A stretch of DNA of 64,000 nt from Amphiura filiformis (GCF_039555335.1 NC_092647.1:18692946-18756945); one strand, 5' to 3'; shown: positions 28,360 to 63,762, numbered from the stretch's first letter. Numbers and translations: made by a program. The notes: generated from the letters alone by a model not told the origin.

Positions 28360-29142
28360 ATGAAGATGGATGACAAGAAACCAAGTCTTCTCAACCCTCT
28401 CTTGGCAACCAAACCATCACATTCCAGTCTACTCACATCATCTAAACCAACATCATCACTTGGTTTGCTCACATTAAGACAATCGTCACCCTCCACTAGC
28501 CTCCGTACCCAAGCAAAGAAACCAAAGGCAGAGGACAAGTCAAATCCGATGTTGATGGCTCAAAAAGCAAACAAGAAGTCGGTGAAGAAAGAGGGTGCGT
28601 CAAAGGAGAAAAAAGTCGCATCCAAGAAAAATGTGGGATTAAAAAGTGCTTTGCAAAATCCTCTTTTGGGTGTATCAACCAAGCAGCATACACTTCTTTC
28701 TGGATCAATCCCATATGGCAGCTCTTTGTCTGGCATATCAGGAGCATCTGGGACAAGTCTGCTACTGACCAAACCAGGAATCTCATCAAGTTTCCATCTG
28801 TCATCTAGTAAGTCATCATCTGCACCATCAACATCACTCTCCTCCAGTCGTTTATTCGGTTCATCTTTGTCAAGCAAATTTTCATCTAGTAAACCATCCA
28901 GCACAACCACTTCGTCGTTCTTCCATGGAACATCTGCAAGGAAGACAAAGCCAACCGACCATCATGGACGTCACACAGATGTTCCAGCAGCATTTGAGAT
29001 CCCTCTACCGGATTATGATTTTCATCTTGAGGATGGTGACTTTGAAGGTCTAGGTGAGGGTGATGAGGTTGATGGTTTCCCAGCATTGGAGGCAGAGGAA
29101 TTGGCACTTGAGATGGCACTTGTGGATGTTAGCGCCAGAAAG
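28360..29142 (+). CDS. TEP1: TEP1-like putative first coding exon. A Ser/Lys-rich, probably disordered N-terminus ending ...GDEVDGFPALEAEELALEMALVDVSARK.
   Basis: The ATG at 28360 is preceded by in-frame stops. 261 codons, then donor aag|gtaaag at 29143 in phase 0, which is compatible with the next exon. The acidic tail loosely resembles the acidic stretch preceding the TROVE region in human TEP1. Assignment to TEP1 is an inference. Confidence 0.45.
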
Positions 29143-30044
29143 GTAAAGTTTGGTATTCATGTTTTTTTATATACAGGAGTTTCTTTCAGTTTTTGTAAGA
29201 TTATTATACCAACAGAAACCTAGCAGATTGTTTGACAAAGATATCATCCAGTTTGTATTTTCAAGCTTTCGACAGCCCAAAATAATAATATAGTAGCCTA
29301 TGGGATGCTGTAATACATGTACCGTATTCGTTCCAATAAGCGCCCATGCCCCAATAAGCGCCCACCCAGCAACTTTGCAACAAACACAATATGAAATTAT
29401 TAACCGCCCATCCAATGTTGTCAAAATACTTCCAGTAAGCTTATCTGTCGAGTGATTTTACATGCATACATGAGGGAAATTGAGCATCAAAAGTATCCAA
29501 AATGTTCACCAAAATTAAATTATGATGCTATTTCATAGTGTGCAGATGTATAGATATTAAAAATACTTCACAATAACCACCTGCAAATGCCTTTAAAAGG
29601 CCAAGTTTGAGCTAATTCTGTCTCAAATTTGTATTTTTTGCCGGCGCGCAGCGGCCATCTTTATAGTGCACCCTCAAAAAAATTTTGTCAATATAATATT
29701 AAATTAAGACACATATGAGGGCGCACTAACTGAGAGTAACTAAATACTTTCAGACGGTGATTGATGACTAAAAACCAGGTAAAAAATAAGCGCCCACCCA
29801 AAATGACTTTGTTAATACGGTAATTATGCGTACGGTACCGTTAACTCACAAATTCATGTCCGATACAACTGAAATATTGTAAATAAGCTGTTTTCATAGA
29901 TATATAATCTATTAAACCATACTATAAAAAAGATGATAAAATCACAAAATACCACTTTAAACAAAAGAGTGAAGGATCTAGAAACAGTCCCTATTACTGA
30001 AAACACTACCTACATTTTCTTTGACCTTTCACTTGACACCATAC

Positions 30045-30290
30045 ACTCCCTATGGAAGACGTGGCTTTAATCTTCCACAGGGAGTGTGCATTTCAAATAA
30101 GATTACCTGAATGAGTGATTCAATTTGAAATCTACACCCCTTACTGGGAGATGACAGGTAATGTCTTCCATAGGGGCACGGGGGGCCGGTGTCACCTCCA
30201 CCTTTCGGCAAATGGTCCCCCCCCACACATTTCAAGCCGGATTGGCGCTAATGCATAGGGGGTGTATGGATTTTAACTGGAATAGCCCAA
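30045..30290. mobile_element. MITE family copy (in a TEP1 intron).
   Basis: tcttccacagggagtgtgcatttcaaataag ... tgtatggattttaactggaatagccc. Confidence 0.65.
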
Positions 30291-30499
30291 TGTTTACAGT
30301 TAGGTACTTCTTCCACTGCAGCCTTCGTGTAGAAATAAAAATCAACATATTTTGTATGATTTGCATCCAACTTGCTTTGCTTGCATCGCATTAAAAATTA
30401 CGATTCACTTTATCCAAATTTTCAATTTTTTACAGCGGTAGATACGTATATTGCACACATGTAAATATATTTCATTTCCTGTTACCATTTCTTCAACAG

Positions 30500-30634
30500 A
30501 ATCTGTTCATCAACTCTGTGAGTGCTTCCCTGATAGGTGGTCCATCATTTGATAATAGACATGATGCAACCAGGGTACAACTGATAGAGCAAGTGGACGT
30601 AGTCATTCAGCATGATCCAGAATTCCTTCTCAAG
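30500..30634 (+). CDS. TEP1: TEP1 exon: NLFINSVSASLIGGPSFDNRHDATRVQLIEQVDVVIQHDPEFLLK (start of TROVE).
   Basis: Acceptor cttcaacag|aat and donor aag|gtttgt. 45 codons. Matches human ...AAIFEICRELALLEPEFILK. Confidence 0.7.
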
Positions 30635-61220: not shown

Positions 61221-62606
61221 CAGGGTTGCCAAAACTTTTTAGCCCAAGTCGCGTATTAGCCGTGAAATGTCGCCTAAATAGCCAAAAAAATCGCCCAAAA
61301 TTTTAAAGTCGATTTAGGGGGTTCTACACCCCGCTTTTATTTTGAAATTTTTGGAAAATGCTGAAATAAATTCTAAAAAACAACAAAAACTGAAAAAAAA
61401 AAAAAATAAATAAAAAAAAATAATTTAAAAAAAAGCGGAAGAAAATTTTAAAAAAAGTCGATTTGAGGGGGATCTACACCCACTTTATTTTGGAAGTTTT
61501 AGAAAAGCTGAAATAAATTATAAAAAACTAACAAAAAATTAAAAAGGTTTAAAAAAAAGAGGAAAAAATGAAAGACGGCTCAGGGGGTTCTACACCCCTT
61601 TCTTTCTATTTTTTTAATGCTGAAATAAATTATAAAAAAATAACAAAAACTGATTTTTTTTGTTATAGGCCTAGCCCTACTGTAAGGAAAATTTATTTGT
61701 GAATTTTTGTGGAAATATCGAAATAAATTATAAACTAACAAAATTGAAAAAAAATGTTTAAACTGCAAATTGAAATAATGAAAAACTAACAAACATTTTC
61801 AAAAATTTAAGAAAAAAATAAACTGCAAGGAAAATAAAATGTTGACTTTTGACGGGTTCTTTTTTAATTTTGGGAAATGCTGAAACAAATTAAAATTATT
61901 TAAAAAATGCCAGGAAAACAATCACATTTATTAATAGACATGCCATTCATTGCAATATAGGGGGGATAGGCCTACAAAAATTGCCTGAGTGATAACAACA
62001 TGTGCATGTAATATTTTTATTCAAATTCAAAACGGCCAGTACTTTTGATCATCATGCCGTTTCAAAAGAAAATGTGCGGTAGGTGTTTACACATTTTTAT
62101 TTCAAAAGAACCGCCATTGGAAAAAAAAAAAGAACTTATGTTGAAGTAGAAACTTAAACTTGGCACCCCGCTGACACTAAGAAGCTGAAAGTCGTCTTAA
62201 ACCACTTGTGAGTAATAGATGGGAATATTCTAAGGATAATCCTCCAACTCAAGTGGTCTTTAGCAACAACATGTGATGCGATTAACCAGCCCCCCTCCCT
62301 GTGCGTGCTATTGTCATGGGAAGCACAATCAATCACACTGACCACAGAGTGTTTTGTAACTTTTGCTTATTGAATTAGTTGTTTGGTGCATTTGTTGAAT
62401 GACCATTGAAAGAATGGGCAATCATGATCAAAAAATAAGTTTTGAAGTCAGCTTTGTCACAAATCGGCCAACATTTAATACATTTCGCGGGTGTGATTTT
62501 CAAAGTAGCCCAAATGTCGCGAAATCGCGGGAGCACTTTCTTTGTCGCGGGACGGAAGTCGAAAATCGCCCAATTGGGCGCCGAAATCGCGGGTTTGGCA
62601 ACCCTG
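61221..62606. mobile_element. Non-autonomous hAT-like DNA transposon (MITE, 1386 bp) with an intact 8-bp TSD.
   Basis: Perfect 13-bp TIRs CAGGGTTGCCAAA (61221..61233) / TTTGGCAACCCTG (62594..62606), flanked by identical 8-bp direct repeats gacagagt (61213..61220 and 62607..62614). Internal ~85-bp subrepeats (gggggttctacacccc...gctgaaataaatt) and an A-rich core. No ORF. Confidence 0.7.
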
Positions 62607-62655
62607 GACAGAGTGTGTTGATAAAGCTTTTTTTGTTGCCTTTTGTTCAATGTAG

Positions 62656-62832
62656 GATGTAGTGTTTGTGGTCAGCGTTCAGGATAATGGTCAGTGTCAT
62701 AAGGCGTTGCTAAGGAGACAACCTACACATATTAGTCTCGGACCACTTGACCTAATGGACAAGGCATTGGTTGTCAGGTCAACCCTGGCGGTACATCGCA
62801 AGGCACTGGAAGAAACAGCCTTCAACAATCAG
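62656..62832 (+). CDS. TEP1: TEP1 exon: DVVFVVSVQDNGQCHKALLRRQPTHISLGPLDLMDKALVVRSTLAVHRKALEETAFNNQ.
   Basis: Acceptor gttcaatgtag|gat and donor cag|gtgagg. Matches RCVHLVLSVSSDAG...ALGPLEASARARLVREELALYGKRLEESPFNNQ. Confidence 0.8.
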
Positions 62833-63669
62833 GTGAGGATTGATGGAAATGAAAAGTGCAAATGAAAGTAAAAATTTCATCCATTCATCGTATAATGTAG
62901 TTTTCCTGTTAGTCCTAAAGTCATTACTTGGTATCTATAATTTATAGTGGGTAAATTGAACAACTTATGTTCCAGCTAGGTTGTCAAGGGTGACAATTAA
63001 CATTTACTTCAAGATCGGCCTGTATTGTTCACTGTTGCATAGGGTTTGAGAAAATGACAGTAATTGTGAAAATGAGATAATACCAAAAATACAGAAGTGA
63101 AAAAATTGGTATTATAAAGCTCATCTTGGTAACCAGAGGATGTTTAAAGACATTCCCATAACCCAATGGGGTTTCTGACCTTGGTATGTCTGGCTTTTGT
63201 ACACAATACCTTGTATTGGGATTGTGTGCAAATATCTGGTGTTTTCATCCTTTTATTTAACATTCAAAACATTGAGACTTATGAATAAAATTAATGCAGT
63301 GGGATAATATGAATGTTTCCTGTAAGAAAGTCAAATATAAGTCATAAGTCTCAACTATTAGCTCTTTGGCTGCAGTTTTAATATTACAATTTTGTGTGTT
63401 TGGCAATGGGGAGTTTGCCTTTAAAATTAGGTTATATTGATCAAATTTCCCAATCATAGTGCATTGTAGGAATGCCTTTAAGCCTCCTCTGCTTGGTAAC
63501 CAAGATGCTAGAAATTAAGACTTCAGCAATGATGCAGTTTGTTACTGGACATGATGATGATGAAAATAATGATGATGATGATGATGATAATAATAACACT
63601 ATTATCAAAATTGTGGGCCTGGTTTTGTTTCACAAATTTATACAATCACCAAACTGTTTTTCTTTTCAG

Positions 63670-63762
63670 ATGAAGCTGCTTGTTTCAAAGCGTGAAGCCA
63701 ACTTACCACTGTTCCTGAGTCTAGCCTGTGAAGAACTCAGAGTGTTTGGTGTCTTTGAACAG
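63670..63762 (+). CDS. TEP1: TEP1 exon: MKLLVSKREANLPLFLSLACEELRVFGVFEQ.
   Basis: Acceptor tttcttttcag|atg and donor cag|gtaaac. Matches MRLLLVKRESGRPLYLRLVTDHLRLFTLYEQ. Confidence 0.8.

Follow-up and report, generated by a model that had tools for sequence, protein, structure and literature searches.

The question raised by this locus is whether the region from 28360 to 63762, on the plus strand of the 64,000-nucleotide stretch of DNA analysed here (the window), encodes an ordinary telomerase-associated protein 1 (TEP1), the vault protein, or a deviant one with an atypical N-terminus and an inserted stretch rich in arginine and glycine (RG), as a first-pass annotation had proposed. The region very probably represents the 5' two-thirds of an invertebrate TEP1 orthologue. 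The model comprises 23 exons, all with GT-AG borders, running from the ATG at 28360 to the donor 63762^gtaaac (carets mark exon borders) and encoding ∼1390 amino acids (aa). The gene exits the window at that donor, the last 238 nucleotides (nt) of the window being intron; the encoded core ends just past NACHT, the WD40 part falling past the end of the window.

The conceptual protein starts with an N-terminus rich in Ser, Leu and Lys (S/L/K-rich), followed by TROVE, an RG linker, the von Willebrand factor A (vWA)-like DUF5920, DUF4062/TeTIR and NACHT. Pfam searches recovered TROVE (PF05731; E = 7.4e-102, profile positions 37-442 of 442), DUF5920 directly after it (PF19334; E = 8.8e-10), DUF4062 (E = 9.3e-17) and NACHT (PF05729; E = 4.4e-9, profile positions 2-162 of 167), the last with Walker A (GKSGCGKT) and Walker B (LMIFIDGVD) motifs. 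The first-pass assignment to TEP1, with TROVE, DUF4062 and NACHT, was thus borne out, the three domains being found in the right order. Its description of the core as full holds for the presence of the domains, but exon 16 is frameshifted as written and the gene leaves the window just past NACHT.

The best matches in protein searches were annotated TEP1 proteins, those of Branchiostoma belcheri (54% identity) and Solemya velum (50%, with 100% query cover), followed by shark TEP1 (41% identity, 98% cover) and then by many vertebrate and protist TROVE proteins. When the TeTIR-NACHT part was used as the query, the best match was a TEP1-like protein of Lingula anatina (54% identity, 100% cover). 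Alignment to invertebrate TEP1s, suggested earlier as a check, agreed with the assignment, giving 50-54% identity to B. belcheri (P0001), S. velum (P0002), Saccostrea (P0010) and L. anatina (P0241). Human and other vertebrate TEP1s share the order TROVE, vWA, DUF4062/TeTIR and NACHT, with both Walker motifs; they differ in their N-terminal 30-aa repeats, not detected here, and their identity is ∼40%. As a side observation, the exon for KLTDEGAVINSRQFPFRFFSAYEVLNQLEKDLTAA was present in three tandem copies at ∼7050-7480 of the B. belcheri locus (L002, JALCYT010000052.1), and P0001 has the segment twice; either the exon has really been duplicated locally or the copies are an artefact of assembly or annotation.

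An AlphaFold2 model of residues 262-875, built from a 44-sequence alignment, had a mean predicted local distance difference test score (pLDDT) of 84 and a predicted TM score of 0.78. Two long stretches of low confidence corresponded to the K-rich/acidic insert of exon 5 and to the RG run, and the DUF5920 region displayed the strand-helix alternation typical of a vWA-like domain. Foldseek searches with this model placed Ro60/TROVE structures on top (E values from 4e-13 to 3e-8), followed by vWA domains. The predicted fold thus resembles that of Ro60 and bacterial Rsr (TM scores of 0.5-0.7, normalised to the target), and Ro60 and TROVE chains were also found by profile search. For its part, Ro60 differs in having no TeTIR, no NACHT and no long N-terminal extension, and its identity is 12-15%.

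Exons were defined by tblastn with the best homologues together with an exhaustive check of donor and acceptor phases at every junction. A single best GT-AG pair was obtained at 19 of the 20 junctions tested; the exception was exon 13, where two equally good acceptors 9 nt apart, preceding 51637 (tttcag^TGT...) and 51646 (ttctag^TTC...), differ by the residues SVS and homology was indecisive. The exon 5 acceptor at 38324 was selected because it restored the conserved YQLAKYN. Exons 11 and 14, both small and easy to miss, were located by eye against the homologue sequences. A direct join of exon 10 to exon 12 was rejected, as it loses ∼26 conserved residues; exon 11 fills this gap and fits the homologue motif ...MLRDR.QIDN. 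Joining exon 13 directly to exon 15 was likewise rejected, the phases being incompatible; exon 14 fills this second gap, leaving an AG that yields the conserved R and restores the RWRTARV junction. The first-pass coordinates for the 261-codon Ser/Lys-rich exon, the RG exon, the two donors at 41021 and 41043 and the end at 63762 were all confirmed. Exon 14 also has a second copy of its acceptor and initial ∼30 nt (ttcag^ATGGCAGCCATAGCAC[A/G]TCAGG) ∼108 nt upstream (52246-52300 versus 52354-52400); this upstream copy meets a stop (MAAIAHQDIQTAIKTST*) and resembles a decoy pseudo-exon.

Several points weigh against the assignment to a TEP1 orthologue. No relative exceeded 60% identity across the length among the matches, none being above 54%, so that the choice of an orthologue over a lineage-specific paralogue is drawn from architecture and best hits only. 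As written, moreover, the sequence does not code for the protein past exon 16, and stops occur within ∼30 spliced codons. The models for exon 1, for both small exons and for exon 8 usage are predictions from homology and splice-site logic only, while vault association and RNA binding are putative properties ascribed from the family, the WD40 part being outside the window.

Exon 1 (783 nt) ends in phase 0 at the donor AAG^gtaaag, the first intron base being 29143, and its product is composed of 20% S, 13% L and 11% K and is probably disordered. No Pfam family matched it at E ≤ 0.01 and no tandem repeat was found in 28360-29142 by Tandem Repeats Finder (TRF); accordingly with the first-pass annotation, neither program detected the vertebrate N-terminal 30-aa repeat. 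The composition was nearly that of the N-termini of Solemya (S 22%, L 14%, K 11%) and Saccostrea (S 20%, L 13%, K 11%), and amphioxus was close. Seven x-LL-[S/T/G/A/N/L] motifs were present (SLLN, PLLA, SLLT, GLLT, PLLG, TLLS and SLLL), compared to a mean of 0.96 in shuffled sequences, and none of the 2000 shuffles reached seven; the motif is also repeated in amphioxus (HNPLL...) and molluscs (SSLLS...). At the acidic 3' end, a P-[D/E]-Y-[D/N] element followed by F-P-A aligned with animal TEP1s, including those of sharks. The S/L/K-rich N-terminus with LL repeats comes from a single large exon in amphioxus and, for the most part, from one in Solemya; in the alignment, the single 300-codon first exon of amphioxus stops at the position where exon 1 does (K^Q-TLINAVSG versus K^N-LFINSVSA). 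Comparison of exon 1 with homologue N-termini by blastp gave weak, composition-driven matches only (best E value, 0.56), and the case for its homology is therefore built on its motif, its composition and where the intron sits, with no weight on alignment score. By these marks the N-terminus is of the usual invertebrate TEP1 type, unusual only against vertebrates, and the label "atypical" should be dropped.

Exon 8 encodes EAEAEYAPSKAEKRNMARDRGRGRGRGRGRGGGRGGYGGAGGGKGKKQ(V), a peptide with seven RG and two RGG, in which regular expressions found the tri-RG and di-RGG patterns and no tri-RGG pattern, according to the motif classes reportedly set out by Thandapani et al. in 2013. Its arginines are specified by five different codons, so that it is no fresh DNA microsatellite; TRF detected a weak 12-nt period within the exon. 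The peptide is flanked on one side by the FPFRFFSAYEVL helix, with which the TROVE ring ends, and on the other by the YRKALD helix, the first of the vWA domain, and the RG run is predicted to be disordered (pLDDT of <50). Like the RGG/RG proteins of the FUS, hnRNP and nucleolin class, exon 8 thus combines tri-RG and di-RGG patterns with an adjoining RNA-binding module; unlike the terminal low-complexity domains of those proteins, it is a short interdomain linker, and it is not tri-RGG.

The corresponding linker was extracted from every homologue having both flanking motifs, roughly 85 sequences. It was always basic and of low complexity, with lengths from ∼21 to ∼160 aa, and contained at least three RG/GR dipeptides in 14 of the ∼85 homologues. 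The counts were 10 in amphioxus, 10 in Solemya, 6 in Saccostrea and 4 in Macrostomum; RG-rich linkers were also present in several transcriptome or metagenome sequences of protistan look, and a Patella fragment showed an RG run at its C-terminal end, the expected linker position. In contrast to the RG/GGY-rich linker found here, the vertebrate linker is ∼85 aa long and K/R-rich, with 0-2 RG/GR dipeptides in the sequences sampled. The first-pass remark that the RG stretch is not part of the vertebrate protein therefore stands for those sequences, as does its RGG-type character in terms of pattern; the RNA-binding or methylation role suggested with it stays conditional (see below).

In both loci fetched, those of Solemya and Branchiostoma, the RG stretch forms a separate exon (Saccostrea was compared at the protein level only). 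The Solemya exon (L001:21466-21658) is 193 nt long, compared to 145 nt here, and has the same phases, 1 in and 2 out; the Branchiostoma exon (L002) also lies at this place in the gene. The exon studied here is without the molluscan NWW(L/I)(D/E)(R/K)KK tail. The shared separate exon, with phases matching those of Solemya, shows exon 8 to be old and orthologous, and not an insertion as had been proposed. It is this lineage's version of the variable basic linker of all TEP1/p80 relatives, RG-rich linkers being widespread outside vertebrates, a mildly new point. Given this wide occurrence and an exon position common to a bivalve, amphioxus and the present gene, exon 8 is most likely constitutive.

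The exon 7 donor lies within a 22-nt tandem duplication, and it is because of this duplication that a second donor exists, the two GT dinucleotides starting at 41021 and 41043. Two of the four donor/exon 8 combinations keep the frame, that is, donor 41021 joined to exon 8 and donor 41043 skipping it (...NRAGRMGKQSS^EIKYDL); the remaining two lead to stop codons. The intron concerned, intron 7, is mostly occupied by minus-strand open reading frames (ORFs; 41278-42187) with sequence resembling the C-terminal part of a reverse transcriptase (RT) (...DLDWPSLQDRRSAARLALMYKITQELVDIP...), a resemblance for which Pfam and phmmer gave no confirmation; these ORFs stop 5 nt short of the RG exon's acceptor tract.

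The only real oddity of the locus besides ordinary TEP1 features is a 1-nt frameshift in the DUF4062 exon 16, which the first-pass annotation did not mention. Exon 16 is 242 nt long, while the flanking phases require 243. It is entered in frame 0 (...KQNK^AVEICLSEV...) and must exit in frame 2, because the sole exon 17 acceptor (55968^C AAA ATT, read as S-K-I-P) needs two bases. After ...ALNKPEDA, frame 0 reads RARHFSLYEIRTLS and frame 2 reads GKAFFFIRDPDLV; the frame 2 reading corresponds to the GKAFF(Y/F)(F/I)RDP motif of every homologue, with the Glu spacing seen in the homologues P0004 and P0005. To judge from these readings, the exon lacks exactly one base at about 54415-54418 (GCTAGGGC), the simplest case being one G of the run; the site lies 13 codons past the catalytic Glu. 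With one base added, TeTIR residues 2-216 aligned to the solved TIR-like domain of human TEP1 (PDB 11gz, chain 11gz_A; E = 1.7e-63) end to end and through the site. Splicing around the frameshift was considered and rejected: the only AG before the shifted frame (54415-54416) needs a donor 40 nt or more upstream, whose use deletes the GRSVTELE block with the catalytic Glu. Scanning of JGI metagenome contigs for the site, with 1-4 bases allowed at the gap, gave no match.

Human residues were mapped on the alignment to 11gz_A with a numbering that we take to be that of the human TEP1 sequence; it was consistent with all six positions. The frameshift-corrected protein keeps all six key residues, namely F (in VFISS), R (GERD), R of the RWG loop, C (EICL), R (GERYG) and E (TELE). 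In human TEP1, the residues reported as important are F902, R914, R942 (RWG loop), C959, R976 and the catalytic E1008 (10.64898/2026.09.21.753143; 10.64898/2026.05.01.722283).

The next TeTIR exon overlaps a very young minisatellite (56069..56853, plus strand; 90 nt by 8.7 copies, 98% identity by TRF) that starts 23 nt inside exon 17, its unit combining the end of the exon with the initial 67 nt of the intron. Copy 1 carries the real donor (TAG^GTAGGT) and copies 2-9 carry TAG^GCAAGT, similar to the usual context of GC-type donors. An A/G variant alternates in copies 2-7, which points to a higher-order unit of 180 nt. The frame is open across the array, but exon 17 is followed at once by a TAG, which blocks read-through. 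Compared to the other invertebrate TEP1s, this minisatellite, the donor duplication and the 1-nt frameshift are the locus's own.

Three other explanations have to be weighed against these readings. One holds that exon 1 is foreign to the gene, with the true start elsewhere and the S/K-rich ORF a chance frame in low-complexity DNA. The low complexity of its sequence, the missing Pfam match and blastp values never better than 0.56 would fit this, but the 294-codon open frame is the window's longest, about equalled only by frames across the 90-nt tandem array, and the composition nearly identical to that of bivalve N-termini, the excess of LL motifs, the alignable P[DE]Y[DN] element and a phase 0 donor at the position of the amphioxus exon 1 end all point to a genuine TEP1 exon; we consider a foreign exon 1 very improbable. 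A regulated cassette exon 8, as raised in the first-pass annotation, is also improbable, if slightly less so. Under it, donor 41021 would be used with the exon and donor 41043 to skip it, giving linkers of 49 or 8 residues (GRMGKQSS). Both configurations are indeed in frame, as first described, both donors have the CAG^GTA context, and the range of linker lengths among homologues indicates that a short linker may be tolerated. However, with 145 nt (1 mod 3) plain skipping causes a frameshift, leaving the duplicated donor as the only route, and donor 41043 with exon 8 included meets a stop after two codons; given these constraints, productive skipping needs two coupled splice choices. The second donor, moreover, stems from a local duplication, is without G at +5 (GTAATA versus GTAGGA) and has no such duplicate at the Solemya exon 7 donor, while an exon position common to bivalve and amphioxus, with the phases of the bivalve, is the pattern of a constitutive exon. 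Cassette use of exon 8 is thus regarded as unsupported.

The third explanation takes the frameshift at face value, as a real null allele or young pseudogene in which a 1-nt deletion cuts the protein off beyond the catalytic Glu, with loss of the remaining TeTIR sequence, NACHT and WD40. The frameshift is present in the sequence as given, stops follow it, and it cannot be spliced around without loss of the conserved GRSVTELE block. Against this, no other lesion occurs in the 4.17 kb of coding sequence or at any of the 44 splice sites; it falls within a GGG run, a typical place of indel errors; and the seven exons downstream stay open and conserved, with 54% identity to Lingula across TeTIR-NACHT. 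A null allele or pseudogene is accordingly unlikely, though less so than the two preceding alternatives, and an assembly or base-calling error in the G run is the probable origin of the frameshift.

With regard to function, 2026 preprints identified DUF4062 as a TIR-like NAD-cleaving enzyme (NADase) (10.64898/2026.05.01.722283, 10.64898/2026.09.21.753143) and raised TEP1, until then an obscure vault component, to one of the just two TIR-like NADases reported as catalytically active in humans, its build being that of a STAND immune receptor whose TROVE-vWA head binds RNA. The TEP1 NADase is active inside vault particles, in a TROVE-vWA/TeTIR/NACHT/WD40 architecture of the STAND type (signal transduction ATPases that have numerous domains) (10.64898/2026.05.01.722283; 10.64898/2026.09.21.753143), and the association of vault RNA with vaults requires TEP1, as cited in 10.64898/2026.09.04.749371. 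By family resemblance, the TROVE-vWA module would hold a small non-coding RNA (vault RNA in mammals), and NACHT, together with the WD40 repeats outside the window, would provide a STAND-type oligomerisation switch. The best-supported reading is that of a putative STAND protein of the vault that holds RNA and cleaves NAD. Among Rfam families, that of vault RNA included, none reached its gathering score in the whole window, and a tRNA scan of it was also empty.

The RG linker, for its part, is probably a flexible, positively charged tether, which might contribute RNA affinity of a non-specific kind and might be methylated on its arginines; these last two roles we infer only. A single literature search pairing TEP1 with RGG returned no paper with either term in the title or abstract. 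A bolder proposal, to which we give little credence, is that an RG/RGG-rich, methylatable TROVE-vWA tether was ancestral in TEP1/p80 and aids small-RNA capture, that vertebrates swapped it for a K/R-rich one, and that the duplicated donor permits an in-frame isoform without RG here; if true, splicing could adjust how the vault NADase is loaded with RNA. More modestly, the RG-rich interdomain linker in many non-vertebrate lineages is a lead on how TEP1 holds RNA. The invertebrate gene model also provides comparative material, since catalytic residues, RWG loop and exon structure are conserved across bilaterians. The locus is otherwise an ordinary orthologue, and the main points for annotators are the 1-nt frameshift and the two small exons, which are given with the other features in Table 1.

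Table 1. Coordinates of the TEP1 exons and associated features in the window
Feature	Coordinates	Strand	Content and evidence
Exon 1	28360..29142	+	ATG, 261 codons, S/L/K-rich N-terminus, PDYD...FPALEAEE at 3' end; splice sites
Exon 2	30500..30634	+	Start of TROVE; tblastn to P0001/P0002, splice sites
Exon 3	31718..31879	+	TROVE; tblastn, splice sites
Exon 4	34880..34976	+	TROVE; tblastn, splice sites
Exon 5	38325..38583	+	TROVE with K-rich/acidic low-complexity insert, pLDDT <50
Exon 6	39843..40000	+	TROVE; tblastn, splice sites
Exon 7	40820..41020	+	TROVE (FPFRFFSAYEVL), left in phase 1; tblastn, splice sites
22-nt tandem duplication	41009..41052	+	2 copies, 90% identity, spans exon 7 donor; TRF
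Exon 8	42192..42336	+	RG/GGY-rich linker, 145 nt, phase 1 in, 2 out
Exon 9	42978..43158	+	Start of vWA-like domain; tblastn, splice sites, model
Exon 10	43821..43973	+	vWA-like; tblastn, splice sites
Exon 11	46027..46104	+	78-nt vWA exon (AMNDYSDDQAIFNTEILFDMLRDRTQ); missed by tblastn; phase 0 both sides
Exon 12	50011..50144	+	vWA-like; tblastn, splice sites
Exon 13	51646..51793	+	End of vWA/DUF5920; alternative start 51637
Exon 14	52354..52445	+	92-nt linker exon (...PLPILASQQTK/R), joins phase 0 to phase 2
Exon 15	53730..53906	+	First part of DUF4062/TeTIR, ends ...DLRWG; tblastn, splice sites
Exon 16	54216..54457	+	DUF4062/TeTIR; Cys (EICL), Arg (GERYG), catalytic Glu (TELE); frameshifted
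Frameshift site GCTAGGGC	54412..54419	+	Frame 0 before, frame 2 after
Exon 17	55969..56091	+	TeTIR; acceptor phase confirms frame 2 at exon 16 end
Exon 18	57375..57495	+	End of TeTIR; tblastn, splice sites
Exon 19	58555..58737	+	NACHT, Walker A (GKSGCGKT); Pfam, tblastn, splice sites
Exon 20	58985..59160	+	NACHT; tblastn, splice sites
Exon 21	59797..59947	+	NACHT, Walker B (LMIFIDGVD); tblastn, splice sites
Exon 22	62656..62832	+	NACHT; tblastn, splice sites
Exon 23	63670..63762	+	Post-NACHT helical region; donor CAG^gtaaac

The window is AT-rich (∼37% GC), with many short open frames and repeats. Pfam searches of the transposon-like ORFs returned RVT_1 only, at 31982-32275, with no significant family for the ORFs of intron 7 and of the 20-22 kb region, and phmmer searches of these ORFs against RT matches were essentially negative. 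The RVT_1 match (E = 1.4e-7) belongs to a long interspersed nuclear element (LINE) RT fragment in intron 3 (31982-32975, plus strand) that is broken over three frames. Its best relatives were ENA contigs (77%), the only named relatives being from Asterias amurensis (45%) and Amphiura filiformis (51%), both echinoderms, which faintly suggests an echinoderm, or some other marine invertebrate, as the source of the DNA.

Upstream of the gene, 20209-20599 and 21700-22099 contain two pairs of inverted-repeat arms with 99% complementarity. The ORFs on these arms (...PLKGKCLSEAVVYQA...YVGLAGGKFKERYNNHVKSF...) are near-identical and resemble a GIY-YIG-type endonuclease module, with no significant match in Pfam, and (ATAA)n tracts lie on both outer sides, at 19775-19941 and 22825-22879. 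These inverted repeats are possibly a Penelope-like element in head-to-head arrangement. Intron 11 holds a 56/108-nt tandem repeat (48996-49397; 7.4 copies, 75% identity) that produces spurious frames on both strands. Finally, a 49-nt tandem array of ∼16 copies, together with units of 97, 124 and 173 nt (90-98% identity), was found upstream of the gene at 4860-5880.

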